Positions 2,861-50,989 of a DNA stretch of 64,000 bases are shown here, piece after piece. Each line of letters begins with the position of its first letter. The first letter of the stretch is position 1. The notes under the pieces are model-generated. The model saw nothing but the letters and a program-made list of their open reading frames with translations. It ran no database searches and had not been told where the DNA came from. The position numbers and the translations under genes were made by a program. Source of the stretch: Struthio camelus (Eukaryota); the NCBI RefSeq assembly GCF_040807025.1, contig NC_090970.1:837359-901358 (forward strand). The letters run 5' to 3'.

Positions 2861-3023
2861 TAGGCCCCCACAAATGCTCCCCCCAAACCCCAAACGTTCC
2901 CAAATTACAGCAAAACACTCCCCAAAACAGCCCCCGGGGAGCCCGGACGCCCCCCCCAGGCCCGTCCGCAGACCCCCGGACGCCTGGGCCCCCGCCCCGG
3001 ACGCCTGGGCCCCCCGCGGGCAC

Positions 3024-3089
3024 CTGCAGCGAGAAGCAGAGATCCTCAACGGTGGCTTCGCCCGACGCCAGCAGCTGGGGGGCCACCGC
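3024..3089 (-). CDS. OSGEP: OSGEP exon 7
   Basis: [22 protein letters not shown] matches human [22 protein letters not shown]. 22 codons. Confidence 0.8.
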
Positions 3090-3099
3090 CTGCGGGGGG

Positions 3100-3715
3100 G
3101 CAGCCGGACGCCTGGGCCCCTCGCCCGGACGCCTGGGCCCCTTCCCCGGACACCTGGGCCCCTCGCCCGGACGCCTGGGCCCCTCGCCCGGACGCCTGGG
3201 CCCCCTCCCCGGACGCCTGGGCCCCTCGCCCGGACGCCTGGGCCCCTTCCCCGGACGCCTGGGACCCTCGCCCGGACGCCTGGGCCCCTTCCCCGGACGC
3301 CTGGGCCCCTTCCCCGGACACCTGGGTCCCTTCCCCGGACACCTGGGCCCCTCACCCGGATGCCTGGGCCCCTTCCCCGGACACCTGGGTCCCCTCCCCG
3401 GACACCTGGGCCCCTCCCCGGACACCTGGGCCCCCTCCCTGGATGCCTGGGCCCCTCCCCGGACACCTGGGCCCCTCCCCGGACACCTGGGCCCCTTCCC
3501 CGGACACCTGGGCCCCTGCCCGGACGCCTGGGCCCTTCCCCGGACACCTGGGCCCCCTCCCCGGACGCCTGGGCCCCTCCCCCGGACACCTGGGTCCCTT
3601 CCCCCGGACACCTGGGTCCCTCCCCGGACACCTGGGCCCCTTCCCCGGACACCTGGGCCCCTTCCCGGACACCTGGGCCCCTCGCCCGGACGCCTGGGCC
3701 CCTCCCGGACGCCTG
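3100..3715. repeat. 21-bp minisatellite family (C-strand on plus) in OSGEP intron 6
   Basis: ccggacgcctgggcccctcgcccggacgcctgggcccc... Confidence 0.9.
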
Positions 3716-3725
3716 GGCCCCTCAC

Positions 3726-3804
3726 CTCGATGTGCGACAGGAGGCCCGAGAAGGAGACGTCCAGGCCCTTCACCACGTACGGCAGCTCCAGCAGCTTCGT
3801 CCCC
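3726..3804 (-). CDS. OSGEP: OSGEP exon 6
   Basis: (K)[26 protein letters not shown] matches human [26 protein letters not shown]. Donor gag|GTGAGG. Confidence 0.85.
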
Positions 3805-3920
3805 CTGCGGCCGCAGCCCCGACCCCGCCGTCAGGGCCCCCCGGACGCCTGGGCCCCCCCTCCCCCCCCGGCCGCGTGGCAGGGGGCCCAGGCGTCCGGG
3901 CCGGCCCCCGAAACACTCAC

Positions 3921-3970
3921 TTCTTAGCCAGTTGTTCGATGTTGTAGCCGGGACTGGGGTCGTTGGAGAT
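3921..3970 (-). CDS. OSGEP: OSGEP exon 5
   Basis: [16 protein letters not shown](K) matches human [17 protein letters not shown]. Acceptor cccgcag, donor aa|GTGAGT. Confidence 0.85.
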
Positions 3971-3984
3971 CTGCGGGAGACCGG

Positions 3985-4925
3985 GCAGGACGTCCAACGG
4001 GGCCCAGGCGTCCGGGGAGGGCCCAGGCGTCCGGGGAGGGGCCCAGGTGTCCGGGAAAGGGGCCCAGGCGTCCGGGGAAAGGGCCCAGGTGTCCGGCGAA
4101 AGAGCCCAGGCATCCAGGGAGGGGCCCAGGCGTCCGGGGAAGGGGCCCAGGCGTCCGGGGAGGGGCCCAGGTGTCCGGGGAGGGGGCCCAGGCGTCCGGG
4201 AAAGGGGCCCAGGTGTCCGGGGAGGGGCCCAGGCATCCGGGGAGGGGCCCAGGTGTCCGGGGAGGGACCCAGGTGTCCGGGGAGGGGCCCAGGTGTCCGG
4301 GGCAGGAACCCAGGCGTCCGGGAAGGGGACCCAGGCGTCCGGGAAGGGGACCCAGGTGTCCGGGGGAGGGGCCCAGGTGTCTGGGGAAAGGGCCCAGGTG
4401 TCCGGGGAAGGGACCCAGGTGTCCGGGGAGGGGCCCAGGCGTCCGGGGCAGGAACCCAGGCGTCCGGGGCAGGAACCCAGGTGTCCGGGGCAGGGACCCA
4501 GGCGTCCGGGGCAGGAACCCAGGCGTCCGGGCCAGGGGGCCAGGTGTCCGGGGAGGGGCCCAGGCGTCCGGGGCAGGAACCCAGGCGTCCGGGCCAGGGG
4601 GCCAGGTGTCCGGGGAAGGGGCCCAGGCGTCCGGGGCCGGAACCCAGGTGTCCGGGGAAGGGACCCAGGCGTCCGGGGCAGGAACCCAGGCGTCCGGGGC
4701 AGGGACCCAGGCGTCCGGGGCCGGAACCCAGGCGTCGGGGGAAGGGACCCAGGTGTCCGGGGCAGGAACCCAGGCGTCCGGGGAGGGGCCCAGGCGTCCG
4801 GGGCCGGAACCCAGGCGTCCGGGGCAGGAACCCAGGTGTCCGGGGCAGGGACCCAGGCGTCCGGGGCAGGAACCCAGGTATCCGGGGCAGGAACCCAGGC
4901 GTCCGGTCCAGGGGGCCCAGGCGTC
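3985..4925. repeat. 21-bp minisatellite family (G-strand on plus: GGGGCCCAGGCGTCCGGGGMAGGR) in OSGEP intron 4
   Basis: Read directly. Confidence 0.9.
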
Positions 4926-7069: not shown

Positions 7070-7500
7070 GGGGGGGGGTCACCCAGGGGTCGGGGGTCAC
7101 GGCGGGGTCACGCGGAGGGGGGGGAGCGGGAGGGGGTCGCCCGGGGGGGTCAGGGGTCACGGGGGGAGGTCGGGGGTCATTCAGGGGTCACCCGGGGGGG
7201 GTCGGGGGTCGCCTCGGGGTCACGGGGGTCACAGAGGGAGGTCAGGGGTCATTCAGGGGTCACCCGGGGGGGGTCAGGGGTCAACCGGGGGGGTCAGGGG
7301 TCATTCAGAGGTCACCTGGGGTCAGGGGTCACGGGGGGGGTCAGGGGTCATTCGGAGGTCACCAGGGGGGTCAGGGGTCACGGGGGGAGGTCAGCGGTCA
7401 TTCAGGGGTCACCCAGGGGGGTCAGTGGTCACGGGGGGAGGTCAGGGGTCACCCGGGGGTCACGGGGGGTCAGGGGTCACGCGAGGGTCAGCGCTGCCCT
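7070..7500. repeat. About 22-44-bp repeat (GGGGTCAGGGGTCACGGGGGGAGGTCAGGGGTCATTCA)n in OSGEP intron 1; the same motif recurs at 59935-60050 in NDRG2
   Basis: Read directly. Contains GGGTCA-G-GGGTCA direct repeats. Confidence 0.85.
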
Positions 7501-7516
7501 CACCCCCCCCGAGCGG

Positions 7517-7780
7517 TGACGTCACTGGGGTGGGGGGGGGAGGGAAGGCCGTGACGTCAAAGAGCGGTGAGCTCGTGGAGGAGGGGGGGAAGGGCGGAAG
7601 TGACGTCACGGCGCGCGCGGGGAAGGGGGAGGAGGGCGGAAGTGACGCGGGCGCTCACCGTGGCCGGGCGCGGTGACGTAGGTGGCGCGCGGGTTGCTCA
7701 GCACCGCCCCGTCGCGCACCAGCCCCGCCCCCACCTTGTTGGCCGAGCCCTCCAGCCCCAGCACCACCGGCATGACGTCA
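7517..7780. promoter_or_regulatory. Four perfect CRE palindromes TGACGTCA (7517-7524, 7552-7559, 7601-7608, 7773-7780) at or around OSGEP exon 1; the last overlaps the OSGEP ATG
   Basis: Exact 8-mer matches read directly. Also a (GGC)8 triplet repeat (sense strand) at about 7805-7830, about 35 nt upstream of the OSGEP ATG, and ETS-like CTTCCG repeats at 7850-7865. Confidence 0.55.
7659..7773 (-). CDS. OSGEP: OSGEP coding exon 1 (ATG at 7773-7771; donor GT 7658-7657; phase 1)
   Basis: [38 protein letters not shown] matches human [39 protein letters not shown]. Confidence 0.85.
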
Positions 7781-7899
7781 CCGCCCGCGTCACCGCCCGC
7801 GTCACTGCCCGCGCTCCTCTCCCCGCGCCGCCGCCGCCGCCGCCGCCGCTTCCTACTTCCGCTTCCGGCCCCCGCGGGTCCCGCCCCTTCCGCTCACGT

Positions 7900-8460
7900 A
7901 GATCCGGCGCGCGCTGATTGGTTGGGGAAGCGGCGCGCGGGGAGGGGGAAGCGGCGGCGCGCGCGGATTGGCTGGAGCGGGGCGGGGGTGGGCGGGGGGA
8001 GGAGGAGGAGGGAGCAGCGGCCGGCGGCGCGCGCTGATTGGCTGGAGCGGGGCGGAGGGGGGCGGGGGGAGGAGGAGGAGGGAGCAGCGGCCGGCGGTGC
8101 GCGCTGATTGGCTGGAGCGGGGCGGGGGTGGGCGGGGGGAGGAGGAGGAGGGAGCAGCGGCCGGCGGCGCGCGCTGATTGGCTGGAGCGGGGCGGGGGTG
8201 GGCGGGGGGAGGAGGAGGAGGGAGCAGCGGCCGGCGGCGCGCGCTGATTGGCTGGAGCGGGGCGGGGGTGGGCGGGGGGAGGCGGAGGAGGGAGCAGCGG
8301 CCGGCGGTGCGCGCTGATTGGCTGGAGCGGGGCGGGGGTGGGCGGGGGGAGGCGGAGGAGGGAGCAGCGGCCGGCGGTGCGCGCTGATTGGCTGGAGCGG
8401 GGCGGGGGTGGGCGGGGGGAGGAGGAGGAGGGAGCAGCGGCCGGCGGCGCGCGCTGATTG
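7900..8460. promoter_or_regulatory. OSGEP/APEX1 bidirectional promoter: 70-bp unit repeated 8 times, each with one CCAAT/Y-box (GCTGATTGGCTG) and Sp1-type GC boxes (GGGGCGGGGG). Two further CCAAT + GC-box copies lie at 8461-8535, abutting the APEX1 ATG.
   Basis: The plus-strand ORFs 7968, 8038, 8108, 8178, 8248 and 8318 start exactly 70 nt apart with near-identical 69-aa translations. The unit GCGCGCTGATTGGCTGGAGCGGGGCGGGGGTGGGCGGGGGGAGGAGGAGGAGGGAGCAGCGGCCGGCGG is visible directly. It lies between the OSGEP ATG (7773, minus strand) and the APEX1 ATG (8539, plus strand). Confidence 0.7.
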
Positions 8461-8538
8461 GCTGCGGCGGCGGGCGCTGATTGGCTGCGGATGTGGGGGC
8501 GGGGCCTGGGGCGGAGGGGGCGGGGCCTGGCGGCGGCC

Positions 8539-8608
8539 ATGCCGAAGCGCAGCAAGAAGGAGGCGGCGGCGGACGGAGATGGCGGCGAGGAGGCGGCGGC
8601 GGAGACCG
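8539..8608 (+). CDS. APEX1: APEX1 coding exon 1 (ATG 8539; donor g|GTAGGG, phase 1)
   Basis: MPKRSKKEAAADGDGGEEAAAET(G) matches human [23 protein letters not shown]. Confidence 0.8.
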
Positions 8609-8699
8609 GTAGGGACCAGTATAGACCAGTATAAACCAGTACGGACCAGTATGGACCAGTACGGCCCGGCACAGGCCGGCGCCGGCCCGTAACCCCGCC

Positions 8700-10740
8700 C
8701 ACTGCCCCCCCCACGATATCCCAGTGCCCCCCCACCCCCCTCCCAGTGCTCCCAGTAGCCCCCCCAGTGGCCCCAGTGCCTCCCAGTGCTCTCCCAGTGC
8801 TCCCAGTAGCCCCCCAGTGCCTCCCAGTGCTCTCCCAGTGCTCCCAGTAGCCCTCCCAGTGCCTCCCAGTACCTCCCAGTTCCTCCCAGTACTCCCAGTA
8901 GCCCCCCGTGCTCTCCCAGTGCTCCCAGTAGCCCCCCCAGTGCCCCCAGTACCTCCCAGTGCTCTCCCAGTGCTCCCAGTAGCCCCCCCAGTGCCTCCCA
9001 GTGCTCTCCCAGTGCTCCCAGTACTCCCAGTAGCCCCCCCAGTGCCTCCCAGTACCTCCCAGTCCCTCCCAGTGCCCCCAGTAGCCCCCCCAGTCCCTCC
9101 CAGTCCCTCCCAGTGCTCTCCCAGTGCTCCCAGTAGCCCCCCCAGTGCTCCCAGTAGGCCCCCGTGCTCTCCCAGTGCTCCCAGTAGCCCCCCCAGTCCC
9201 TCCCAGTGCCTCCCAGTCCCTCACAGTGCTCTCCCAGTGCCCCCAGTAGCCCCCCACTGTCTCCCAGTGCTCTCCCAGTGCTCCCAGTAGCCCCCCCCAG
9301 TGCCTCCCCGTGCTCTCCCAGTGCCTCCCAGTGCCTCCCAGTGCCTCCCAGTGCTCCCAGTAGCCCCCCCAGTGCCTCCCAGTGCTCTCCCAGTGCCTCC
9401 CAGTTTTCTCCCAGTGCTCCCAGTGCTCTCCCTGTAGCCCCCAGTGCTCTCCCAGTGCCTCCCAGTGCTCCCAGTAGCCCCCAGTGCTCTCCCAGTGCCT
9501 CCCAGTTTTCTCCCAGTGCCTCCCAGTGCTCCCAGTGCCTCCCAGTACCTCCTAGTGCTCTCCCAGTGCTCCCAGTAGCCCCCCACTGCCTCCCAGTAGC
9601 CCCCGTGCTCTCCCAGTGCTCCCAGTAGCACCCCCAGTCCCTCCCAGTGCTCTCCCAGTGCTCCCAGTAGCCCCCCCAGTGCCTCCCAGTAGCCCCCAGT
9701 AGCCTCCCAGTGCCCCCAGTAGCCTCCCAGTGCTCCCAGTAGCCCCCCCACTGCCCCCCACTGTCTCCCAGTGCTCTCCCAGTGCCCCCAGTAGCCCCCC
9801 ACTGCCTCCCTGTGCCTCCCAGTGCTCTACCAGTGCCCCCAGTAGCCCCCCCAGTGCCTCCCAGTACCTCCCAGTCCCCCCAGTAGCCCCCCAGTCCCTC
9901 CCAGTGCTCTCCCAGTGCTCCCAGTACCCCCCACTGCCTCCCAGTACCTCCCAGTGCTCTCCCAGTGCCCCCAGTGCTCTCCCAGTGCTCCCAGTAGCCC
10001 CCCCAGTGCTCCCAGTAGCCCCCCATGCTCTCCCAGTGCCCCCAGTAGCCCCCCAGTCCCTCCCAGTCCCTCCCAGTCCCTCCCAGTGCCCTCCCAGTGC
10101 CCTTACAATCCCTTCTAGTCTCTCCCCGTGCTTCCCAGTCCCTCCCAGTCCCTCCTAGTGCCCTCCCAGTGCCCTTCCAATCCCTCCCAGTGCCTCCCAG
10201 TCCCTCCCAGTGCCCCCCAGTGCCTCCCAGTGCCCCCCAGCGCCCTCCCAATCCCTCCCAGTACCCCCCAGTCCCTCCCAGTGCCCCCCAGTGCCCTTCC
10301 AATCCCTCCCAGTCCCTCCCAGTGCCTCCCAGTGCCCCCCAGCGCCCTCCCAATCCCTCCCAGTACCCCCCAGTCCCTCCCAGTGCCCCCCAGTGCCCTT
10401 CCAATCCCTCCCAGTGCCTCCCAGTGCCCCCCAGCGCCCTCCCAATCCCTCCCAGTACCCCCCAGTCCCTCCCAGTGCCCCCCAGTGCCCTTCCAATCCC
10501 TCCCAGTGCCTCCCAGTGCCCCCCAGCGCCCTCCCAATCCCTCCCAGTGCCCCCCCAGTCCCTCCCAGTGCCCCCCAGTGCCCTTCCAATCCCTCCCAGT
10601 GCCCCCCAGTGCCCCCCAGCGCCCTTCCAATCCCTCCCAGTGCCCCCCCAGTCCCTCCCAGTGCCCCCCAGTGCCCTTCCAATCCCTCCCAGTGCCTCCC
10701 AGTGCCCCCCAGCGCCCTCCCAGTGCCCCCCAGTGCCCCC
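8700..10740. repeat. Tandem repeat family (CCCAGTGCTCTCCCAGTGCTCCCAGTAGCCCCCCAGTGCCTC; further on CCCAGTGCCCCCCAGTGCCCTTCCAATCCCTC)n filling APEX1 intron 1
   Basis: Read directly. Produces the spurious P/S-rich ORFs 8724-10868. Confidence 0.85.
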
Positions 10741-10790
10741 CCAGTCCCTCCCAGTGCCCCCCAGTGACGGCGGCGCGCCCCCCCCGGCAG

Positions 10791-10957
10791 GCGGGCGCCC
10801 CCCGAAGGCGGCGCGGGGCGACGGGGGGGCGGCGGCGGCCCCCTACGAGGACCCCCCCGACCGGCTGACGGCGCCGGGGGGGCAGCGCTTCACCCTCAAG
10901 GTGACGTCCTGGAACGTCGACGGCCTCCGCGCCTGGGTGCGCAAGCAGGGCCTGCAG
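10791..10957 (+). CDS. APEX1: APEX1 coding exon 2
   Basis: Acceptor cccccggcag|gc. ...[39 protein letters not shown] matches human [40 protein letters not shown]. Donor cag|GTGGGG. Confidence 0.85.
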
Positions 10958-10959
10958 GT

Positions 10960-12060
10960 GGGGCCCCGGCGTCCGGGAGGGGCCCCGGCGTCCGGGGGGG
11001 GGCCCAGGGGTCCGGGGGAAGGGGACCCAGGTGTCCGGGAGGGGCCCAGGCGTCCGGGGAGGGGGCCCAGGTGTCCGGGAGGGGCCCAGGCGTCCGGGGA
11101 GGGGGCCCAGGTGTCCGGGGAAGGGGCCCCGGCGTCCGGGGAGGGGGCCCAGGTGTCCGGGGAAGGGGCCCAGGCGTCCGGGGAGGGGCCCAGGTGTCCG
11201 GGGAGGGGCCCCGGCGTCCGGGGAGGGGGCCCAGGTGTCCGGGGAAGGGGCCCAGGCGTCCGGGGAGGGGGCCCAGGTGTCCGGGGAGGGGGCCCAGGCG
11301 TCCGGGGAAGGGGCCCAGGCGTCCGGGGAGGGGCCCAGGTGTCCGGGGAGGGGCCCAGGTGTCCGGGGAGGGGCCCAGGTGTCCGGGGGAGGGACCCAGG
11401 CGTCCGGGAGGGGGCCCAGGCGTCCGGGGAAGGGGCCCAGGCGTCCGGGAAGGGGCCCAGGCGTCCAGGGAAGGGGCCCAGGCGTCCGGGGAGGGGCCCC
11501 GGCGTCCGGGAGGGGCCCAGGCGTCTGGGAGGGGGCCCAGGCGTCCGGGAGGGGCCCCGGCGTCCGGGAGGGGGCCCAGGCGTCCGGGAGGGGCCCCAGC
11601 GTCCAGGGAAGGGGCCCAGGCGCCCGGGGGAGGGGCCCAGGTGTCCGGGGAAGGGGCCCAGGTGTCCGGGGGGGGCCCAGGCGTCCGGGGAGGGGCCCAG
11701 GCGTCCGGGGGAAGGGGCCCAGGCATCCGGGGAGGGGGCCCAGGCGTCCGGGAGGGGCCCAGGTGTCCGGGGAAGGGACCCAGGCGTCTGGGGAAGGGAC
11801 CCAGGCGTCTGGGGAAGGGACCCAGGCGTCCGGGAAGGGACCCAGGCGTCCGGGGGAAGGGGCCCAGGTGTCCGGGGAAGGGGCCCAGGTGTCCGGGAAG
11901 GGACCCAGGCGTCCAGGGAGGGGCCCAGGCGTCCGGGGAAGGGGCCCAGGCGTCCGGGGAGGGGCCCAGGTGTCCGGGAAGGGGCCCAGGCGTCCGGGGA
12001 GGGGCCCAGGCGTCCGGATGAGGGGACCCAGGTCTCCGGGGAAGGGGCCCAGGCGTCCGG
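10960..12060. repeat. 21-bp minisatellite (G-strand) filling APEX1 intron 2
   Basis: ggggcccaggcgtccggggaggg... starts 3 nt after the exon-2 donor. Confidence 0.9.
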
Positions 12061-12153: not shown

Positions 12154-12346
12154 TGGGTGCAGGAGGAGGCGCCGGACGTGCTGTGCCTGCAGGAGACCAA
12201 GTGCGGGGGGGCGGCGGTGCCCCCCGAAGTTCGGGCCCTGCCGGGCCTCCCCCACCAGTTCTGGGCCAGCGCCGAGGGCAAACCGGGCTACAGCGGCGTC
12301 GGCCTGCTGGCCCGCCACGAGCCCCTCAGCGTCACCTACGGCATCG
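12154..12346 (+). CDS. APEX1: APEX1 coding exon 3
   Basis: [64 protein letters not shown](G) matches human [65 protein letters not shown]. Donor g|GTGAGC. Confidence 0.9.
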
Positions 12347-14246: not shown

Positions 14247-14761
14247 GTGACGAGGAGCACGACCGCGAGGGCCGGGTGGTGACGGCCGAGTTCCCCGCTC
14301 TCTACGTGGTGGCCGCCTACGTGCCCAACGCCGGCCGGGGGCTGGTACGCTTGGATTACCGGCGCCGCTGGGACGTCGCCCTCCGCGCCTTCTTGGCCCG
14401 CCTGGACGCCCGCAAGCCGGTGGCCCTCTGCGGCGACCTCAACGTGGCCCACGGCGAGCTCGACCTGCGCCACCCCCGGGCCAACCGCCGCTCGCCCGGC
14501 TTCACCGCCGAGGAGCGCCAGGGCTTCGGCGACCTCCTCGACGCCGGCTTCCTCGACTCCTTCCGGCACCTCTACCCGGCCGTGCCCCACGCCTACACCT
14601 TCTGGACCTACTTGGGGGGCGCCCGGGCACGCAACGTGGGCTGGCGCCTCGATTACTTCGTCCTCTCGCGCCGCCTCGAGGGAGCCCTCTGCGACAGCAA
14701 GATCCGCTCCAAGGTGCTGGGCAGCGACCACTGTCCCATCACCCTCTACCTCGCCCTATAG
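14247..14761 (+). CDS. APEX1: APEX1 coding exon 4 (terminal; TAG stop 14759-14761)
   Basis: Acceptor ccgcag|gt. [170 protein letters not shown]. This is the 171-aa ORF 14108..14761 in the track. Confidence 0.95.
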
Positions 14762-16559: not shown

Positions 16560-17740
16560 GCGGCCCCCAGGCTCTCCGGGGGCCCAGGCGTCCGGGGAGG
16601 GGCCCAGGCGTCCAGGGAGGGGACCCAGGTGTCCGGGGAGGGGCCCAGGTGTCCGGGGGAGGGACTCAGGCGTCCGGGGAGGGGGCCCAGGCGTCCGGGA
16701 AGGGGGCCCAGATGTCCGGGGAGGGGCCCAGGCGTCCGGGGAAGGGGCCCAGGTGTCCGGGGAGGGGCCCAGGCGTCCGGGGAGGGGGCCCAGGCGTCCG
16801 GGGAGGGGCCCAGGTGTCCGGGGGAGGGACCCAGGTGTCCGGGGAGGGGCCCAGGTGTCCGGGGAAGGGCCCAGGCGTCCGGGGAAGGGGCCCAGGTGTC
16901 CGGGGCAGGGACCCAGGTGTCCGGGGAGGGGCCCAGGTGTCCGGGGAAGGGCCCAGGCGTCCGGGGAAGGGCCCAGGTGTCCGGGGAGGGGCCCAGGTGT
17001 CCGGGGGAGGGGCCCAGGTGTCCGGGGGAGGGACTCAGGCGTCCGGGGAAGGGGCCCAGGTGTCCGGGGGGGGGGCCCAGGTGTCCGGGGACAGGGGCCC
17101 AGGCGTCTGGGTGAGGGGCCCAGGCGTCCGGGGGGGGGCCCAGGCGTCCGGGGAGGGGCCCAGGCGTCCGGGGAGGGGGCCCAGGTGTCCGGGGAGGGGG
17201 CCCAGGCGTCCGGGGAGGGGCCCAGGTGTCCGGGGGAGGGACCCAGGTGTCCGGGGAAGGGGCCCAGGCATCCGGGGAAGGGCCCAGGTGTCCGGGGAGG
17301 GGCCCAGGTGTCCGGGGGAGGGACTCAGGCGTCCGGGGAAGGGGCCCAGGTGTCCGGGGGGGGGGCCCAGGTGTCCGGGGACAGGGGGCCCAGGCGTCTG
17401 GGGAAGGGGCCCAGGCGTCCGGGTGAGGGGCCCAGGCGTCCGGGGAGGAACCCAGGCGTCCGGGGAAAGGGCCCCGGTGTCCGGGGAGGGGCCCAGGTGT
17501 CCGGGTGAGGGGCCCAGGTGTCCGGGGAGGGGCCCAGGTGTCCGGGGAGGGGCCCAGGCGTCCGGGAAGGGGCCCAGGTGTCCGGGGGAGGGACCCAGGT
17601 GTCCGGGGCAGGGGCCCAGGCGGCCGGGGGAGGGACCCAGGCGTCCGGGGCAGGGGCCCAGGCGTCCGGGTGAGGGGCCCAGGCGTCCGGGTGAGGGGCC
17701 CGGGTGTCCGGGGAGGAAAGAACAAAACGGGCCCAGGCGT
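16560..17740. repeat. 21-bp minisatellite (G-strand), APEX1-PIP4P1 intergenic
   Basis: Read directly. Confidence 0.9.
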
Positions 17741-19839: not shown

Positions 19840-21110
19840 TGCGGGCCCGGACGCCTGGGTCCCTCGGCTCGGACGCCTGGGCCCCTCCCCGGACGCCTGG
19901 GTCCCCTTCACCGGACGCCTGGGCCCCTCCCCGGACACCTGGGTCCCCTTCACCAGACGCCTGGGTCCCTCCCCGGACGCCTGGGTCCCCTTCCCCGGAC
20001 GCCTGGGTCCCCTTCCCCGGACGCCTGGGCCCCTTCCCCGGACGCCTGGGCCCCTCCCCGGACGCCTGGGCCCCCTCCCCGGACGCCTGGGTCCCCTTCA
20101 CCGGACGCCTAGGCCCCTCCCCGGACGCCTGGGCCCCTCCCCGGACGCCTGGGTCCCCTTCACCGGACGCCTGGGCCCCTTCCCCGGACACCTGGGCCCC
20201 TCCCCAGATGTCTGGATCCCCTTCACCGGACACCTGGGCCCCTTCCCCGGACGCCTGGGCCCCCTCCCCGGACGCCTGGGTCCCCTTCACCGGACGCCTG
20301 GGCCCCCTTCACCGGACGCCTGGGCCCCCTTCACCGGACACCTAGGCCTCTTCCCGGACACCTGGGCCCCTCCCCGGACGCCTGCGTCCCTCGGCTCAGA
20401 CACCTGGGCCCCTCCCTGGACACCTGGGCCCCTTCCCCAGACGCATGGGCCCCTCCCCGGACACCTGGGCCCCTCCCCGGACGCCTGGGCCCCCTTCACC
20501 GGACACCTAGGCCTCTTCCCGGACACCTGGGCCCCTCCCCGGACACCTGGGCCCCTTCCCCGGACACCTGGGCCCCTTCCCGGACGCCTGGGCCCCTCCC
20601 GGACACCTGGGCCCCTCCCCGGACACCTGGGCCCCTTCCCCGGACGCCTGGGCCCCCTTCCCCGGACACCTGGGCCCCTTCCTGGACACCTGGGCCCCCT
20701 TCCCCGGACACCTGGGCCCCTCCTGGACACCTGGCCTCCTCCCCGCACGCCTGGGTCCCCTTCACCGGACTCCTGGGCCCCTTCCCGGACACCTAGGCCT
20801 CTTCCCGGACGCCTGGGCCCCTCCCCGGACGCCTGGGTCCCTTCCCCGGACGCCTGGGCCCCCTCCCCGGACGCCTGGGTCCCCTCCCCGGACGCCTGGG
20901 CCCCTTCCCCAGACGCCTGGGCCCCTCCCCCGGACACCTGGGCCCCTCCCCCGGACACCTGGGCCCCCTCCCCCGGACACCTGGGCCCCCTCCCCGGACA
21001 CCTGGGTCCCCTTCACCGGACACCTGGGCCCCTCCCCGGACACCTGGGTCCCCTTCACCGGACGCCTGGGCCCCCTCCCCCGGACGCCTGGGCCCCTCCC
21101 CGGACGCCGG
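19840..21110. repeat. 21-bp minisatellite filling PIP4P1 intron 6
   Basis: Read directly. Confidence 0.9.
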
Positions 21111-21124
21111 GGCCCCTCACTCAC

Positions 21125-21215
21125 CGCCAGGCCGGCGCCGGCGGCCGCCATGAGCAGCCCCAGCAGGAAGCAGCAGACGCAGCGTCTCCGGGGGTAGCGG
21201 CGCCCCACGGCCGAC
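21125..21215 (-). CDS. PIP4P1: PIP4P1 exon 6
   Basis: (V)[30 protein letters not shown] matches human [30 protein letters not shown]. Donor gcg|GTGAGT. Confidence 0.88.
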
Positions 21216-21445
21216 CTGGGGGGGGGGGGGGGTCGACAAGGGACCCAGGCGTCCGGGGAGGGGACCCAGGCGTCCGGGCCCGGATCCCCCCCCCCCCTCC
21301 CTTCCCCACCTCCAACCTCCCCGTCCAGCACCCACGGGGGAGCCCAGGCGTCCGGGCTCCCCCCCCCTCCCCCCCGCCATGAAGGGACAGGGGTGCCTGG
21401 GGCCCCTCCCCCGCCGCGAGGGGCCCAGGCGTCCGGGGCACTCAC

Positions 21446-21498
21446 ACTTTGCGGCAATGGGGGCACCGGGCCAAGGTCCGCTCCGAGAACTCCGTCCA
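21446..21498 (-). CDS. PIP4P1: PIP4P1 exon 5
   Basis: [17 protein letters not shown](V) matches human [18 protein letters not shown]. Acceptor cccgcag, donor gt|GTGAGT. Confidence 0.9.
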
Positions 21499-21519
21499 CT
21501 GCGGGGGGGGAGGGGGCGT

Positions 21520-22920
21520 CAGGGACCCCGGCGTCCGGGTGCTGTGACCCCCTCCCCCCCCCCACCCCGCCACACACCCCCAAGGGGCCCCGGCGGCCGG
21601 GGGAGAGAGGGGCCCAGGCATCCGGGGAGGGAAGGGGCCCAGGCGTCCGGGGCGGAAGGGACCCCGGTATCCGGGAGGAGAAGGGGCCCAGGCGTCCGGG
21701 AGCAGAAGGGACCCAGGTGTCCGTGGCGAGAAGGGGCCCAGGCGTCCGGGGGGGAGAGGGGCCCAGGCATCTGGGAGGAGAAGGGGCCCAGGCGTCCGGG
21801 GGGGAGAAGGGGCCCAGGCGTCCGGGGGGGAGAAGGGGCCCAGGTCTCCGGGGAGGGGCCCAGGTGTCCAGGGAAGGGACCCAGGTGTCCGGGACAAGGA
21901 CCCAGGCGTTCGGGGCAAGAAGGGGCCCAGGCGTCCGGGGCGGAAGGGGCCCCGGTGTCTGGGGCAGGACCCAGGTGTCCGGGGAGGGGCCCCGGCGTCC
22001 AGGGTGAAGGGGCCCAGGCGTCCGGGGCGAGGAAGGGGCCCAGGCGTCCGGGGCGAGAAGGGGCCCAGGCGTCCGGGGGGAGAAGGGGCCCAGGCGTCCG
22101 GGGGAGAGAGGGGCCCAGGCATCCAGGGGGGAGAAGGGGGCCCAGGCATCCAGGGGGGAGAAGGGGGCCCAGGCATCCAGGGGGGAGAAGGGGGCCCAGG
22201 CGTCCGGGGGGGAGAAGGGGGCCCAGGCGTCCGGGGCGAGGAAGGGGCCCAGGCATCCGGGGCGAGGAAGGGGCCCAGGCGTCCGGGGCGAGGAAGGGGC
22301 CCAGGCGTCCGGGGCGAGGAAGGGGCCCCGGTGTCCGGGAGGAGAAGGGGCCCAGGCGTCCGGGGAGGAGAAGGGGCCCAGGCGTCCGGGGCGAGGAAGG
22401 GGCCCAGGCGTCCGGGGCGAGGAAGGGGCCCAGGCGTCCGGGGAGGAGAAGGGGCCCAGGCGTCCGGGGCGAGGAAGGGGCCCAGGCGTCCGGGGAGGGA
22501 AGGGGCCCCGGTGTCCGGGAGGAGAAGGGGCCCAGGCGTCCGGGGAGGAGAAGGGGCCCAGGCGTCCGGGGGAGAGGGGCCCAGGCGTCCGGGGCGGAAG
22601 GGACCCCGGTGTCCGGGGGAGAGGGGCCCAGGCATCCGGGGCGGAAGGGACCCCGGTGTCCGGGGGAGAGGGGCCCAGGCGTCCGGGGCGAGGAAGGGGC
22701 CCAGGCGTCCGGGGAGGGAAGGGGCCCAGGCGTCCGGGGAGGAGAAGGGGGCCCAGGCGTCCGGGGAGGAGAAGGGGGCCCAGGCGTCCGGGGAGGAGAA
22801 GGGGGCCCAGGCGTCCGGGGAGGAGAAGGGGCCCAGGCGTCCGGGGAGGAGAAGGGGCCCAGGCGTCCGGGGCGGAAGGGGCCCCGGCGTCCGGGGAGGG
22901 AAGGGGCCCCGGCGTCCGGC
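21520..22920. repeat. About 27-bp minisatellite variant (GGGGMGARAAGGGGCCCAGGCGTCC)n filling PIP4P1 intron 4
   Basis: Read directly. Confidence 0.9.
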
Positions 22921-23869: not shown

Positions 23870-25250
23870 GGCGGGCCGGACGCCTGGGCCCCCTGCCCGG
23901 ACGCCTGGGCCCCTCCCCGGACGCCTGGGCCCCCTGCCCGGACGCCTGGGCCCCTCCCCGGACGCCTGGGCCCCCTGCCCGGACGCCTGGGCCCCTCCCC
24001 GGACACCTGGGCCCCCTGCCCGGACGCCTGGGCCCCTTCCCGGACACCTGGGCCCCCTGCCCGGACACCTGGGCCCCCTGCCCGGACGCCTGGGCCCCTT
24101 CCCGGACACCTGGGCCCCCTGCCCGGACGCCTGGGCCCCTGCCCGGACGCCTGGGCCCCCTGCCCAGACGCCTGGGCCCCTTCCCGGACACCTGGGCCCC
24201 CTGCCCGGACACCTGGGCCCCCTGCCCGGACGCCTGGGCCCCCTGCCCGGACGCCTGGGCCCCTTCCCGGACACCTGGGCCCCCTGCCCGGACACCTGGG
24301 CCCCCTGCCCGGACGCCTGGGCCCCTCCCCGGACACCTGGGCCCCCTGCCCGGACGCCTAGGCCCCCTGCCCGGACGCCTGGGCCCCTGCCCAGACGCCT
24401 GGGCCCCTTCCCCGGACGCCTGGGCCCCTCCCTGGACACCTGGGTCCCTCCCCGGACACCTGGGTCCCTTTCCCCGGACACCTGGGCCCCTCCCTGGACA
24501 CCTGGGTCCCTTCCCCGGACGCCTGGGCCCCTCCCCGGACACCTGGGCCCCTTCCCCGCACACCTGGGCCCCTTCCCCGGACGCCTGGGCCCCCTCCCCG
24601 GACGACTGGGCCCCTCCCCGGACGCCTGGGCCCCTCCCTGGACACCTGGGCCCCTTCCCCGCACACCTGGGCCCCTTCCCCGGATGCCTGGGCCCCTTCC
24701 CCCGGACGCCTGGGCCCCTTCCCCGGACGCCTGGGTCCCTTCCTCGGACGCCTGGGCCCCTTCCCCGGACACCTCGGTCCCTCCCCGGACACCTGGGCCC
24801 CTTCCCCGGACACCTGGGCCCCTGCCCCGGACGCCTGGGCCCCTCCCCAGGACGCCTGGGCCCCCTCCCCGGACGCCTGGGCCCCTCCCCGGACGCCTGG
24901 GCCCCTTTCCCCGGACGCCTGGGCCCCTCCCCAGGACGCCTGGGCCCCTCCCCGGACGCCTGGGTCCCTCTCCCGGACGCCTGGGCCCCTCCCCCGGACG
25001 CCTGGGCCCCTTCCCGGACGCCTGGGCCCCTTCCCCGGACGCCTGGGCCCCTCCCCCGGACGCCTGGGCCCCTCCCCGGACACCTGGGCCCCCTTCCCCG
25101 GACGCCTGGGTCCCTTCCCCGGACGCCTGGGCCCCTTCCCGGACACCTGGGCCCCTTCCCCGGACACCTGGGCCCCTCCCCGGACGCCTGGGCCCCTTCC
25201 CCGGACGCCGGGGCCCCTCCCCGGACGCCTGGGCCCCCCCGGCCGCGGGG
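23870..25250. repeat. 21-bp minisatellite filling PIP4P1 intron 2
   Basis: Read directly. Confidence 0.9.
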
Positions 25251-25255: not shown

Positions 25256-25434
25256 GGTGGCCTCGTTGCACACGTGACACTTCACCACGTGCTGGTGCGT
25301 TTTGCCCTCGACGCTGATGCGGCTCTGACACACGCGGCACGTGACCGCCGGCCCCGCCCCCCCTTCGGGGCTGCCCAATGGCGAGTAAGGGGGCGGGGCC
25401 TCCGCCCCTGGCCCCGCCCCCGGCGAGGCCCCGC
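25256..25434 (-). CDS. PIP4P1: PIP4P1 exon 2 (+/-1 nt at the 5' end)
   Basis: [59 protein letters not shown] matches human [49 protein letters not shown]. Donor acc|GTGAGC. Confidence 0.8.
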
Positions 25435-25645
25435 CTGCGGGAGACGCCCGGTAAAGGGGAGTGGCGTTAGCCCCGCCCCCTCCCCAAGCCCCGCCCCACT
25501 CCTCTAAGCCCCGCCCACCACGGCGCACCGCCCCACCTAGGAAGGCCCCGCCCACGTCAAGCCCCGCCCCCAGACCGCGGCGCCCTCTCAGGCCCCGCCC
25601 CTCCCAAAGCCCCGCCCCCTCCCCGTAGCCCCGCCCCCTCCTCAC

Positions 25646-25733: not shown

Positions 25734-25749
25734 GGCCGCCCGTGCCGGC

Positions 25750-26550
25750 CGCCGTAGCGCCGCCCCCACGTGACGCCGGCGCCGCGCCGCGATTGGGCCC
25801 GGCCGGCCGCGCCGCCGCTCACGTGACCCCTCCCCCTCCCTCCGCGGCGCTCCCTCGCCACCACGTGACGCCGCGTCGCTAGGCGACCGCCCCGCCCCAG
25901 CGCTCCGCCGCGCTCGCCCGACGCCCTCCCCGCGCTTCTCATTGGCCCGCCGGCCCGCCCGCGCCACGTGACGCCGCGTTGCTAGGCGACCGCCTCCCCT
26001 AGGGCTCCGCCCCGCTCGCCCGACGCCCTCCCCGCGCTTCTCATTGGCCCGCCGCCCCGCCCGCACCACGTGACGCCGCGTCGCTAGGCGACCGCCCCGC
26101 CCATGCGCTCCGCCCCGCTCGCCCGACGCCCTCCCCGCGCTTCTCATTGGCCCGCCGCCCCGCCCGCGCCACGTGACGCAGCGTTGCTAGGCGACCGCCC
26201 CCCGCTCACCCACAGCGCGCCGCCGGCGGTCACGTGCGCCTCTCCGCCGCCTCCCATTGGCTCCGGGCGGTCGGGAGCGGAGCGGCGCCTTCACCCCCCT
26301 CCCCTCACCCAACTCCCCTTCCTTCCGCCCCGCCCACCCGCCGCCGCTGACCAATGGCGGCCGCCGCTGCCCGCCGTCGCCCGGGGCGACGCGGCGGCGG
26401 TGCCGGCGGACGGCGCCGCTGATTGGCTCTCCCGGCCGTGACGTCGGCGCGGGTGAGGGGGGGGCGGTTTTAGGCGGGCAGCGGCGACCGGCCCGCTCAT
26501 AACTGACCGGCGACTATGGACGGCAGGTGCGCGGTGCGCATGCGCGGTGG
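25750..26550. promoter_or_regulatory. PIP4P1 promoter / CpG island: about 105-bp unit tandemly repeated about 3.5 times, carrying a CCAAT box (TCTCATTGGCCC) plus a CACGTGAC E-box (CLEAR-like). Six CACGTG E-boxes in total (about 25821, 25864, 25967, 26069, 26172, 26231). Additional CCAAT boxes at about 26255, 26352 and 26425, and an NRF1 palindrome GCGCATGCGC at about 26536-26545.
   Basis: Repeat unit CGCGCTTCTCATTGGCCCGCC...CCACGTGACGCCGCGTTGCTAGGCGACCGCC...GCTCCGCCCCGCTCGCCCGACGCCCTCCC read at about 25930, about 26031 and about 26140, immediately upstream of the PIP4P1 ATG (25733, minus strand). Confidence 0.6.
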
Positions 26551-30000: not shown

Positions 30001-33000
30001 GGTCTTGGGTCCATGCCTGGGTCCCACCACGAGCTTCAGGTCCATCCGTGGGTCATGCTATGGGTGCTGGGTCCCTGTATGGGTCGCAACATGCTTAGTA
30101 GATGACAGTGTAGGTCGTGTTATGGGTGCTGGGTCCATCCCTGGGTCGCTGTATGGGTGCTGGGTCCATACTTGGACCATGCTATGGGTCTTGGGTCCAA
30201 CTCTGGGTCACAACATGCTTAGTAGATGACAATGTAGGTCGTTTTATGGGTCTTGGGTCCATCCATGAGTCCCTGTATGGGTGCTGGGTCCACCCCTGGG
30301 TCACGCTATGGGTCTTGGGTCCATCCCTGGGTCCCACCATGAGCTTCAGGTCCATGCCTGGGTCACGCTATGGGTGCTGGGTCCCTGTATGGGTCACAAC
30401 ATGCTTAGTAGATCACAACATAGGTCGTGTTATGGGTGCTGGGTCCATCCATGGGTCCCACCATGAGCTTAAGGTCCATGCCTGGGTCACGCTATGGGTG
30501 CTAGGTCCCTGTATGGGTCGCAACATGCTTAGTAGATGACAGTGTAGGTCGTGTTATGGGTGCTGGGTCAATCCCTGGGTCGCTGTATGGGTGCTGGGTC
30601 CATGCTTGGACCATGCTATGGGTCTTGGGTCCATCTCTGGGGCGCAACATGATTAGTTAGATCATGACATAGATCATGTTATGGGTGCTGGGTCCATCCC
30701 TGGGTCCCACCACGAGCTTCAGGTCCATGCCTGGGTCACGCTATGGGTGCTGGGTCCCCGTATGGGTCGCAACATGCTTAGTAGATGACAATGTAGGTCG
30801 TGTTATGGGTGCTGGGTCCATCCCTGGGTCCCTGTATGGGTGCTGGGTCCATGTATGGGTGCTGGGTCCATGCTTGGACCATGCTATGGGTCTTGGGTCC
30901 ATCTCTGGGGCGCAACATGATTAGTTAGATCACAACATAGGTTGTGTTATGGGTGCTGGGTCCATCCCTGGGTCCCACCACGAGCTTCAGGTCCATGCCT
31001 GGGTCACGCTATGGGTGCTGGGTCCATCCCTGGGTCCCACCACGAGCTTCAGGTCCATCCGTGGGTCATGCTATGGGTCTTGGGTCCATCTCTGGGGCAC
31101 AGCATGATTAGTAGCTCATAAGGTAGGTCCATCAAGGGGTGCTGGGTCCATCCCTGGGTCCCACCACGAGCTTCAGGTCCATGCCTGGGTCACGCTATGG
31201 GTGCTGGGTCCCTGTATGGGTCACAACATGCTTAGTAGATGACAATGTAGGTTGTGTTATGGGTCTTGGGTCCATCTCTGGGTCACAACATGATTAGTTA
31301 GATCATGACATAGATCATGTTATGGGTGCTGGGTCCATCCCTGGGTCCCACCATGAGCTTCAGGTCCATCCGTGGGTCACATTATGGGTCTTGGGTCCAT
31401 CCCTGGGTCCCACCACGAGCTTCAGGTCCATGCCTGGGTCACGCTATGGGTGCTGGGTCCCTGTATGGGTCACAATGTGATTAGTAGATTATAATGTAGG
31501 TCGTGTTATGGGTGCTGGGTCCATCCCTGGGTCCCACCACGAGCTTCAGGTCCATCCGTGGGTCACACTATGGGTCTTGGGTCCATCTCTGGGGCACGGC
31601 GTGATTAGTAGCTCATAAAGTAGGTCCATCAAGGGGTGCTGGGTCCATCCCTGGGTCCCACCACGAGCTTCAGGTCCATCCGTGGGTCACGCTATGGGTG
31701 CTGGGTCCCTGTATGGATCATGACATAGATCATGTTATGGGTGCTGGGTCCATCCCTGGGTCCCACTACAAGCTTCAGGTCCATGCCTGGGTCATGCTAT
31801 GGGTGCTGGGTCCCTGTATGGGTCGCAACATGCTTAGTAGATGACAGTGTAGGTTGTGTTATGGGTGCTGGGTCCATCCCTGGGTCCCTGTATGGGTGCT
31901 GGGTCCATACTTGGACCATGCTATGGGTCTTGGGTCCATCTCTGGGTCGCAGCATGCTTAGTAGATGACAATGTAGGTTGTGTTATGGGTCTTGGGTCCT
32001 TCTCTGGGTCACAACATGATTAGTTAGATCATGACATAGATCATGTTATGGGTGCTGGGTCCATCCCTGGGTCCCACCACGAGCTTCAGGTCCATCCCTG
32101 GGTCACGTTATGGGTCTTGGGTCCATCCCTGGGTCCCACCATGAGCTTCAGGTCCATCCCTGGGTCACGTTATGGGTCTTGGGTCCATCTCTGGGGCACA
32201 GCGTGATTAGTAGCTCATAAAGTAGGTCCATCAAGGGGTGCTGGGTCCATCCCTGGGTCCCACCATGAGCTTCAGGTCCATCCGTGGGTCATGCTATGGG
32301 TCTTGGGTCCATCTCTGGGTCGCAGCATGCTTAGTAGATGACAGTGTAGGTCGTGTTATGGGTGCTGGGTCCATCCCTGGGTCCCTGTATGGGTGCTGGG
32401 TCCATGTATGGGTGCTGGGTCCATGCTTGGACCATGCTATGGGTCTTGGGTCCATCTCTGGGGCGCAACATGATTAGTTAGATCATGACATAGATCATGT
32501 TATGGGTGCTGGCTCCATCCCTGGGTCCCACCACGAGCTTCAGGTCCATCCGTGGGTCATGCTATGGGTCTTGGGTCCATCTCTGGGGCACAGCATGATT
32601 AGTAGCTCATAAAGTAGGTCCATCAAGGGGTGCTGGGTCCATCCCTGGGTCCCACCACGAGCTTCAGGTCCATGCCTGGGTCACGCTATGGGTGCTGGGT
32701 CCCTGTATGGGTCACAACATGCTTAGTAGATGACAATGTAGGTTGTGTTATGGGTCTTGGGTCCATCTCTGGGTCACAACATGATTAGTTAGATCATGAC
32801 ATAGATCATGTTATGGGTGCTGGGTCCATCCCTGGGTCACGTTATGGGTCTTGGGTCCATCCCTGGGTCCCACCATGAGCTTCAGGTCCATCTGTGGGTC
32901 ACGCTATGGGTCTTGGGTCCATCCCTGGGTCCCACCACGAGCTTCAGGTCCATGCCTGGGTCACGCTATGGGTGCTGGGTCCCTGTATGGGTCACAATGT

Positions 33001-36000: not shown

Positions 36001-37760
36001 AGGTTGTGTTATGGGTCTTGGGTCCATCTCTGGGTCACAACATGATTAGTTAGATCATGACATAGATCATGTTATGGGTGCTGGGTCCATCCCTGGGTCA
36101 CGTTATGGGTCTTGGGTCCATCCCTGGGTCCCACCATGAGCTTCAGGTCCATCTGTGGGTCACGCTATGGGTCTTGGGTCCATCCCTGGGTCCCACCACG
36201 AGCTTCAGGTCCATGCCTGGGTCACGCTATGGGTGCTGGGTCCCTGTATGGGTCACAATGTGATTAGTAGATTATAATGTAGGTCGTGTTATGGGTGCTG
36301 GGCCCATCCCTGGGTCCCACCACGAGCTTCAGGTCCATCCGTGGGTCACACTATGGGTCTTGGGTCCATCTCTGGGGCACGGCGTGATTAGTAGCTCATA
36401 AAGTAGGTCCATCAAGGGGTGCTGGGTCCATCCCTGGGTCCCACCACGAGCTTCAGGTCCATCCGTGGGTCACGCTATGGGTGCTGGGTCCCTGTATGGA
36501 TCATGACATAGATCATGTTATGGGTGCTGGGTCCATCCCTGGGTCCCACTACAAGCTTCAGGTCCATGCCTGGGTCATGCTATGGGTGCTGGGTCCCTGT
36601 ATGGGTCGCAACATGCTTAGTAGATGACAGTGTAGGTTGTGTTATGGGTGCTGGGTCCATCCCTGGGTCCCTGTATGGGTGCTGGGTCCATACTTGGACC
36701 ATGCTATGGGTCTTGGGTCCATCTCTGGGTCGCAGCATGCTTAGTAGATGACAATGTAGGTTGTGTTATGGGTCTTGGGTCCGTCTCTGGGTCACAACAT
36801 GATTAGTTAGATCATGACATAGATCATGTTATGGGTGCTGGGTCCATCCCTGGGTCCCACCATGAGCTTCAGGTCCATCCCTGGGTCACGTTATGGGTCT
36901 TGGGTCCATCCCTGGGTCCCACCATGAGCTTGAGGTCCATGCCTGGGTCACGCTATGGGTCTTGGGTCCATCTCTGGGGCACAGCGTGATTAGTAGCTCA
37001 TAAAGTAGGTCCATCAAGGGGTGCTGGGTCCATCCCTGGGTCCCACCATGAGCTTCAGGTCCATCCGTGGGTCATGCTATGGGTCTTGGGTCCATCTCTG
37101 GGTCGCAGCATGCTTAGTAGATGACAGTGTAGGTCGTGTTATGGGTGCTGGGTCCATGCCTGGGTCCCACCACGAGCTTCAGGTCCATCTGTGGGTCACG
37201 CTATGGGTCTTGGGTCCATCTCTGGGGCACAGCGTGATTAGTAGATCATAAAGTAGGTCCATCAAGGGGTGCTGGGTCCATCCCTGAGTCCCACCACGAG
37301 CTTCAGGTCCATGCCTGGGTCACGCTATGGGTGCTGGGTCCCTGTATGGGTCGCAACATGCTTAGTAGATGACAGTGTAGGTCGTGTTATGGGTGCTGGG
37401 TCCATCCCTGGGTCCCTGTATGGGTGCTGGGTCCATGCTTGGACCATGCTATGGGTCTTGGGTCCATCTCTGGGTCACAACATGATTAGTTAGATCATGA
37501 CATAGATCATGTTATGGGTGCTGGGTCCATCCCTGGGTCCCACCACGAGCTTCAGGTCCACCCCTGGGTCACGCTATGGGTTTTGGATCCATCCCTGGGT
37601 CCCACTACGAGCTTCAGGTCCATCCGTGGGTCACGCTATGGGTCTTGGGTCCATCTCTGGGGCGCAGCGTGATTAGTAGCTCATAAAGTAGGTCCATCAA
37701 GGGGTGCTGGGTCCATCCCTGGGTCCCACCACGAGCTTCAGGTCCATGCCTGGGTCACGC
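27100..37760. repeat. About 10.6-kb satellite array between the PIP4P1 promoter and PNP. Monomers of about 110-130 bp (e.g. ATGGGTCTTGGGTCCATCCCTGGGTCCCACCACGAGCTTCAGGTCCATSC...). 27.1-29.1 kb is a divergent GGGTCC-rich part; 29.1-37.76 kb is organised in a 3261-bp higher-order repeat (about 2.6 copies).
   Basis: Identical ORF translations recur exactly 3261 nt apart: 30117/33378, 30281/33542, 30676/33937, 31732/34993, 32238/35499, 32808/36069, 33254/36515. There is internal 1522/1739 sub-periodicity (31732 vs 33254). Confidence 0.9.
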
Positions 37761-49868: not shown

Positions 49869-49916
49869 ATGACGGAGCTGCGGGATGTCGGCGCCGCCCC
49901 CCCGGGGCCCCCCGAG
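49869..49916 (+). CDS. NDRG2: NDRG2 first coding exon (ATG 49869; donor GAG|GTGAGC)
   Basis: [16 protein letters not shown] matches the human N-terminus MAELQEVQITEEKP. Confidence 0.6.
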
Positions 49917-50965: not shown

Positions 50966-50989
50966 GTGAGTGCCGGACGCCTGGGCCCC

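Follow-up and report, generated by a model that had tools for sequence, protein, structure and literature searches.

The mammalian genes OSGEP and APEX1 have a bidirectional promoter that has been treated in two papers (Seki et al. 2002, Gene 285:101; Ikeda et al. 2002; via PMC3418287 and PMC2094082). According to the papers that cite this work, a CCAAT box is crucial for the promoter in the mouse (Ikeda 2002, BBRC 296:785, as cited in PMC3418287), and APE1 is regulated through a CREB site and Sp1 (PMC3794595). Here we describe the corresponding promoter of the ostrich, which lies in a stretch of 64,000 nucleotides of Struthio camelus DNA (contig NC_090970.1, positions 837,359 to 901,358); we call the whole of this stretch the window and count all ostrich positions from its first letter. 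The ostrich promoter resembles the mammalian one in that the same genes stand head to head less than 1 kb apart across a TATA-less CpG island, and that it contains motifs of the CCAAT, Sp1 and CREB/ATF kinds, which the literature reports for the mammalian promoter or for APE1. It differs from it in that no tandem array is mentioned for mammals where the promoter is cited, whereas the ostrich has ten Y-boxes (ATTGG, the CCAAT box read on the opposite strand), eight of them spaced by a 70-bp unit, as well as four cAMP response elements (CREs). We think it probable that this is a TATA-less CpG-island bidirectional promoter in which an ancestral cluster of NF-Y sites has been remodelled repeatedly by local expansion, and in which the ostrich has recently amplified a single module made of a Y-box and GC boxes.

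Promoters with several CCAAT boxes are known as platforms on which NF-Y recruits Sp1 and Sp2, with GC boxes between the CCAAT boxes; in human cells the minimum distance of double CCAAT boxes is 19 bp, the preferred distances are 24-27, 36 and 43 bp, and the classes distinguished are 24-30 and 35-37 bp (PMC4889920). The ostrich promoter is like these in combining several consensus sites with intervening GC boxes at spacings that all exceed 19 bp, its 23-bp proximal pair falling just under the 24-27 bp class, and the 31-33-bp spacings that we find in owl, cormorant and duck fall between the 24-30 and 35-37 bp classes. Different from the human sites, however, which are mostly pairs, the arrays considered here hold 7-23 boxes that have arisen by tandem duplication, and the 70-bp and 50-bp spacings of the ostrich and the 48-bp spacing of the tinamou lie outside the preferred distances. 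Since this applies to the 70-bp period itself, cooperative pairing of neighbouring units is not implied.

The second system that bears on the locus is the "sequence stuttering" of avian dot chromosomes, whereby the non-coding parts of GC-rich genes are filled with imperfect tandem repeats that have expanded locally, their units measuring tens to hundreds of bp (PMC12954441). The introns of OSGEP and APEX1, which are 45-100% tandem repeat, fit this description. Yet stuttering has been described for introns and exon edges and promoters are not discussed, whereas what is repeated here is a promoter module whose factor sites are intact; moreover, a more decayed Y-box array is present also in a turtle, whose locus is not stuttered. 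Finally, in the cyp51A promoter of Aspergillus fumigatus (TR34/TR46) more copies of a promoter repeat lead to more expression, an effect that is attributed to the SrbA sites and not to the CCAAT complex (PMC7711461). There too a short promoter segment with activator sites is tandemly duplicated and its copy number shifts by unequal exchange or slippage, but the fungal promoter is unidirectional, has two to four copies and an effect that has been shown by experiment, whereas an effect of the ostrich array on expression is hypothetical.

The gene pair, its promoter logic, variable-number tandem repeats in promoters and dot-chromosome stuttering are already known. In the literature searched, tandem Y-box arrays are nowhere described for the OSGEP/APEX1 promoter of birds or turtles; searches for papers on avian APEX1 promoters or microchromosomes found none, and a search on the turnover of homotypic binding-site clusters found nothing specific.

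The array between OSGEP and APEX1

The interval between the two start codons, the exons that border it and the elements within and next to it are listed here by position and strand.

7517-7609, no strand assigned: three perfect CREs in OSGEP intron 1 (7517-7524, 7552-7559 and 7601-7608)
7600-8600, no strand assigned: CpG island covering both first exons and the entire array, GC content 0.77-0.81
7657-7773, minus strand: OSGEP first coding exon, from tblastn, with further exons down to about 109; the emu orthologue carries Pfam TsaD
7773-7813, no strand assigned: perfect CRE TGACGTCA (7773-7780, sharing one base with the OSGEP ATG) and micro-repeat, in the presumed OSGEP 5' untranslated region (5'UTR)
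7849-7893, minus strand: ETS-like CTTCCG motifs at 7856, 7862 and 7887 (CGGAAG on the OSGEP-sense strand), on the OSGEP-proximal side
7902-7951, plus strand: diverged 50-bp copy of the unit, identified by alignment to the unit consensus, with Y-box GCTGATTGGTTG and, behind it, a shorter G-rich tail; this copy bounds the Y-box cluster towards OSGEP
7952-8464, plus strand: 70-bp minisatellite of seven full units and a 23-bp unit start, from repeat detection and the listing of units
8465-8538, plus strand: unique APEX1-proximal promoter, with the last Y-box (ATTGG at 8480, 59 bp before the ATG) and then GGGCGG at 8497, 8509 and 8518
8539-8608, plus strand: APEX1 first coding exon (MPKRSKKEAAADGDGGEEAAAET), from the spliced model, with a GT donor at 8609

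Tandem Repeats Finder (TRF) reports the sequence at 7952-8464 with a period of 70, 7.3 copies, 97% matches, 0% indels and a score of 970. Seven complete units occupy 7952-8441; their pairwise identities are 94-100% (mean 97.3%), and they vary at five columns. The first 23 bp of a further unit come next (8442-8464), and after these a second 23-bp partial copy (8465-8487). The preliminary description had counted eight units, and while the tandem 70-bp array stands, that number does not, as there are seven full units and a 23-bp start. Every full unit carries one Y-box (CTGATTGGCTG, reading CAGCCAATCAG on the OSGEP-sense strand), two GC boxes (GGGGCGGGGG and TGGGCGGGGGG) and a (GGA)n purine tract. 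The motif GCTGATTGGCTG is present eight times, in six of the seven full units and in both partial copies, with GCGGATTGGCTG in its place in unit 1, and GGGGCGGGGG seven times, once per full unit; the CCAAT-box and GC-box content that had been ascribed to the units is thereby borne out. The array is 513 bp long, has a GC content of 81% and contains six potential G-quadruplex (G4) motifs, all on the plus strand. With its head-to-tail units of at least 10 bp inside the promoter it is a promoter minisatellite.

The ten ATTGG boxes of the interval span 7917-8480 and all lie on the plus strand, on which there is no CCAAT between the start codons. Their spacings are never below 23 bp, being mainly 70 bp, also 50 bp, and 23 bp in the proximal pair, so that NF-Y could bind neighbouring boxes at the same time. 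NF-Y has the consensus C-R-R-CCAAT-S-R-S, and its full 11-nt form (SYS-ATTGG-YYG) is matched by nine of the ten boxes, which are at the same time all of the plus-strand matches in the 64 kb. The motif CTGATTGG is found 12 times in the window, as against 2.3 expected, and nine of the 12 occurrences fall inside the intergenic region, which also contains 17 copies of GGGCGG. This pattern of motifs is far beyond chance.

On the APEX1 side, the last Y-box and the three GC boxes behind it fall within 75 bp of the ATG, in the same order as in the 70-bp unit, Y-box first and GC boxes after it, and this proximal promoter is orthologous to emu 9958-10120 (83% identity). The surroundings are those of a TATA-less CpG-island promoter, with the array inside the island and between the first exons: no TATA box was found in 7774-8538, and the observed/expected ratio of CpG is 1.05-1.13 over 7600-8600 and 1.02 over the start-to-start interval, as compared to 0.50 for the window and 0.0-0.6 for the flanking intronic minisatellites.

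On the OSGEP side, at 7517, 7552, 7601 and 7773, lie all the copies of the CRE TGACGTCA that the 64 kb contain; these are four as against 0.18 expected, a number that none of 100 shuffles reached. One CRE overlaps the OSGEP ATG and three more follow within 260 bp downstream, just as the preliminary description had it; the three lie in OSGEP intron 1, 165-256 bp beyond the one at the ATG. The CRE at 7601-7608 is part of an ETS/CRE-like composite, CGGAAGTGACGTCAC (7595-7609), and the CRE at the ATG is extended by a micro-repeat of 12 bp and 3.2 copies (CGTCACCGCCCG), which supplies two further half-CREs. A CRE at the OSGEP ATG is present also in emu, owl and tinamou, and several intron-1 CREs are found in all five of the other birds and in none of turtle, bat and gecko. 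Next to these CREs, OSGEP intron 1 contains a minisatellite (7132-7491), with a counterpart in the emu (8055-8630), built of (A/G)GGTCA(C) motifs that look like the half-sites of nuclear receptors or like one half of the neighbouring GTGACGTCAC CRE; the minisatellite may be derived by stuttering of the adjoining CRE-containing sequence.

The identity of the two genes is secure. Direct reading places the OSGEP start at the minus-strand ATG 7773-7771 and the APEX1 start at the plus-strand ATG 8539-8541, the latter opening the reading frame MPKRSKKEAAADG; the gap between the start codons is 765 bp (7774-8538), and the genes are divergent and head to head within less than 1 kb. In tblastn searches with human OSGEP and APEX1 sequences, OSGEP gave nine exon matches on the minus strand from 7773 down to 109, and the APEX1 exons were placed on the plus strand. 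The APEX1 model consists of four exons (8539-8608, 10791-10957, 12154-12346 and 14247-14761) with AG/GT at all internal junctions; its 314 amino acids match human APE1 crystal-structure sequences from end to end (E=6e-137) and are identical at 314 of 314 positions to Struthio camelus XP_068777937.1. Both the head-to-head pair and the distance of about 765 bp between divergent starts had been named in the preliminary description and are confirmed by these data.

A single plus-strand ATG lies within the intergenic interval, at 8491, in frame with APEX1, 48 nt upstream of its ATG and with no stop between. Translation from it would add 16 residues (MWGRGLGRRGRGLAAA) to APEX1 if transcription began upstream, and its presence argues weakly for an APEX1 transcription start site (TSS) between 8494 and 8538. 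We would expect APEX1 transcripts to begin within about 8490-8538 and those of OSGEP around 7800-7870. We also considered an N-terminal coding extension through the array and discarded it, since 70 is not divisible by 3 and the sole upstream plus-strand ATG lies downstream of the array.

The Y-box in other species

Loci for comparison were fetched through APEX1 homologues from emu, owl, cormorant, mallard, tinamou, turtle, bat, gecko and toad, a set without a galliform, a crocodilian or a second ostrich assembly. OSGEP and APEX1 are head to head in emu, owl, cormorant, duck, tinamou, turtle and bat. The number of ATTGG boxes between the starts and their spacing are as follows.

Ostrich: 10 boxes, spacing 70 bp
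Emu: 7 boxes, spacing irregular, 28-87 bp
Little owl (Athene): 23 boxes, spacing mostly 31-32 bp
Cormorant (Phalacrocorax): 18 boxes, spacing mostly 31-32 bp
Mallard (Anas): 3 boxes, spacing 31-33 bp
Tinamou (Eudromia): 12 boxes, spacing 48 bp
Flatback turtle (Natator): 10 boxes in a decayed TGYGATTGGCC array, spacing irregular, about 43-90 bp

In every one of these arrays, in the ostrich as in the five other birds and the turtle, the boxes lie on the APEX1-sense strand. The start-to-start interval of the bat, by contrast with these, contains no CCAAT or ATTGG, no TGACGTCA and no tandem repeat; the gecko has no array but a 3.7-kb interval with dispersed ATTGG only, and in the toad there is no array and no OSGEP within 6 kb of APEX1. 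Tandem repeats cover 58-88% of the bird loci, 11% of the turtle locus (33% of its intergenic part), 0% of the bat locus and 1% of the gecko locus. As the turtle array stands in a locus that is only 11% repeat, the multi-Y-box arrangement would appear to be older than the repeat saturation of birds and not simply a symptom of it. Seen by itself, the ostrich array is nothing out of the ordinary, being the form that a shared feature takes in one lineage.

The unique flanks of the ostrich array are orthologous to and collinear with those of the emu (83-86%), and the 70-bp unit matches a module that is single-copy in the emu (9596-9669) at 79-83% and resembles the tinamou unit as well. This homology to one emu module indicates that the ostrich array is a recent amplification of an ancestral module composed of a Y-box and a G-rich tail. 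The emu, as a sister lineage, has amplified another module of the promoter, the ETS-like CTTCCG (CTACTTCCGCCCGC), of which it has 15 copies at 9025-9364 with periods of 23, 51 and 74 bp, as against three in the ostrich. The G-rich tail is confined to the palaeognath units, and the 31-bp units of owl, cormorant and duck, in which no G4 motif occurs, still have the Y-box. Judged by this comparison of sequences, the GC boxes within the unit are specific to the ostrich lineage and the Y-box is the conserved part. Two other views of the units were considered and given up: that the G-rich tail, be it as G4 or as GC boxes, is the conserved element, as the neoavian units have no tail, and that the spacers are unrelated in all species, as the ostrich unit is similar to the emu module and the tinamou unit and only the neoavian spacers differ.

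But is the Y-box under constraint? Among 73 units from six species, in an analysis anchored on ATTGG, high information content is found only in CGCTG-ATTGG-C. For a test independent of the motif, the owl, cormorant and tinamou arrays were cut by their TRF period and the pieces aligned. The Y-box columns then match the consensus at 95-99% and the remaining columns at 83-86%, and random sets of columns reach the mean of the Y-box in 55, 1234 and 118 of 20000 draws in the three arrays. In the regular arrays of owl, cormorant and tinamou, ATTGG is retained in every unit, as no gaps of double length occur. This supports purifying selection on the NF-Y sites, with the reservations made below.

The preferred reading can be spelled out as a mechanism. 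The central 0.5 kb is a young minisatellite, produced by local tandem expansion of a single ancestral promoter module. This expansion presumably came about by slippage during replication or by unequal exchange, and so by the instability to which the minisatellites of the neighbouring introns would also be due. Each Y-box (CAGCCAATCAG, in full agreement with the NF-Y consensus) would bind NF-Y and the GC boxes would bind factors of the Sp1 family, and together these may keep the roughly 600 bp between the core promoters poor in nucleosomes and active in both directions. The ETS and CRE sites would constitute the OSGEP proximal promoter, and the Y-box and GC boxes the APEX1 proximal promoter. 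Selection would retain a cluster of several NF-Y sites but be loose on unit length and copy number; if it is loose about number, then the exact 7.3 copies are probably near neutral and likely to vary among individuals.

Repeats across the window

TRF repeats cover 77% of the window, 45-100% of the larger OSGEP and APEX1 introns and 87% of the intergenic interval, and overlap the APEX1 exons in only 72 of 945 bases. Massive tandem expansions recognised by TRF thus fill the non-coding parts and leave the coding exons intact, as in the published definition of stuttering. The record of XP_068777937.1 is on a sequence of 6.96 Mb, which is compatible with a small chromosome but not decisive for a dot chromosome. 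With 77% of the window in tandem repeats, a minisatellite in non-coding DNA is the local default, and the array is unexceptional as a repeat.

A second probable promoter of the window also has a tandem module.

25734-26515, no strand assigned: second probable bidirectional CpG-island promoter, with a tandem module at 25861-26201 (103 bp, 3.3 copies, 92% matches)

The 103-bp repeat lies directly upstream of the PIP4P1/TMEM55B start (minus-strand ATG at 25733), with PNP exons on the plus strand from 38070, and its copies each carry CACGTGAC (an E-box), CATTGGCC (a CCAAT box) and GC boxes; the orthologous interval of the cormorant is only about 210 bp long. Inside PIP4P1, past its ATG, about 12 close copies of (A/G)GCCCCGCCCC form a GC-box array (25340-25640) at the first exon/intron boundary region of this minus-strand gene.

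Some of the other repeats are shared between distant places or between species. A minisatellite family with units of 20-21 bp (GGGGCCCAGGYGTCCGGGG) makes up at least 14 arrays in both orientations, in introns and intergenic DNA, with about 400 core matches; examples are 24-571, 2976-4914, 11043-12046, 16581-17730, 19911-22856, 23876-25221, 45685-47741, 48205-50494 and 50973-51894, and the family is found in the emu at 11690-11990. This recurrence and its presence in the emu mark it as a dispersed satellite family and not purely a local expansion of unique sequence. A 2.97-kb block of a 62/124-bp minisatellite, probably inside a very long first intron of PNP, is itself tandemly duplicated (30740-33710 and 34001-36972, 97.8% identity) and so forms a higher-order repeat. 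In APEX1 intron 1, minisatellites of AGACCAGTAT and then of CCTCCCAGTG, the latter with about 200 copies, follow each other in the ostrich (8603-8664 and 8739-10766) and the emu (10062-10201 and 10214-11495); the same order and sequence in both indicates that some arrays have persisted since the two lineages split.

Selected cluster or by-product of instability

The explanation that competes best with a retained NF-Y cluster is that the array is one more product of the regional minisatellite instability, in which one or two Y-boxes regulate and the extra copies add nothing. We regard this neutral origin as possible but rather unlikely. It accounts for the repeat load just described, in the window (77%), the larger introns (45-100%) and the intergenic interval (87%), and for that of the other bird loci (58-88%), for the 97% identity of the ostrich units, which speaks for a recent expansion, and for the freedom with which copy number (3-23) and period (31 to 70 bp) vary among species. 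It would also cover the emu, which amplified its ETS-like CTTCCG module instead, and the PIP4P1-side promoter with its own repeat of 103 bp and 3.3 copies, and it agrees with the general enrichment of direct repeats that is reported for the promoters of bird dot chromosomes (bioRxiv 10.1101/2025.10.17.683159). However, it would not readily explain that Y-box columns are better conserved than spacer columns in three diverged arrays, that no ATTGG has been lost although other columns disagree with the consensus by 14-17%, that a Y-box array exists in a turtle locus which is only 11% tandem repeat, and that the Y-box is the sole element common to all units across species.

A mis-assembly of the G-rich direct repeat, affecting the number of units or the array as a whole, appears highly improbable: G4 and direct-repeat content does correlate with the loss of PacBio HiFi depth on bird dot chromosomes (bioRxiv 10.1101/2025.10.17.683159), and the array has six G4 motifs and 81% GC, but its 513 bp are far below the length of long reads, its five variable columns form a non-periodic pattern unlike that of a collapsed or copy-pasted consensus, its flanks are collinear with those of the emu, and homologous arrays occupy the same place in six independent assemblies of other species. 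We likewise give very little credence to the idea that non-B DNA is the functional element, with a G-quadruplex or a (GGA)n triplex driving promoter opening or recombination and the Y-box as a passenger, for although a canonical G4 motif is present in six of the seven full units (unit 2 being outside the pattern), always on the APEX1-sense strand, and G4s are reported to be enriched and unmethylated at bird promoters and 5'UTRs (bioRxiv 10.1101/2025.10.17.683159), the G-rich tail occurs only in palaeognath units, those of owl, cormorant and duck keep the Y-box without a G4, and with 358 G4 motifs on the two strands of the window such a motif is no mark of the array site.

Then again, several points weigh against a cluster of NF-Y sites kept by selection. 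The 97%-identical units of the ostrich carry no information on constraint, so that the argument rests on the other species, whose units are not independent of one another under concerted evolution, and one of the three permutation tests is marginal (1234 of 20000). The copy number of 3-23 among birds means that dosage cannot be tightly selected, and the bat, which has no CCAAT at all between the starts, indicates that this gene pair can in general do without a large NF-Y cluster. The 70-bp spacing is outside the preferred human double-CCAAT distances (24-27, 36 and 43 bp), and the second promoter of the window also has a repeated module (25861-26201), as would be expected of by-products of local instability.

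What appears to be new, going by the literature searched, is that intact NF-Y sites in a tandem array that is rapidly remodelled make up the very core of this promoter, and that all the birds examined, and a turtle as well, have such arrays there. Going beyond the retention of a cluster, one may suppose that in birds and turtles selection has long kept a cluster of identical NF-Y sites as the OSGEP/APEX1 promoter, while the units of this cluster are continually rebuilt by tandem expansion and decay (31, 48 or 70 bp or irregular, in 3-23 copies), so that copy number would act as a heritable, fast-mutating expression dial for an essential base-excision-repair gene and a tRNA-modification gene. 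We put this forward as a speculation that we ourselves consider doubtful. If it were true, the locus would be a natural vertebrate system for the concerted evolution of binding-site arrays, and the stuttering of dot chromosomes would extend from introns to working regulatory DNA. Should the arrays be neutral, they would show how far a housekeeping bidirectional promoter tolerates it when the number of its sites and the distances between them change greatly. Should they be functional, they would provide a simple, countable cis-regulatory variable for the expression of APEX1 and OSGEP, across and within species, and a test of whether the instability of avian dot chromosomes reaches regulatory DNA that is at work. 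We suggest that the locus is a tidy and testable case of the turnover of binding-site arrays.

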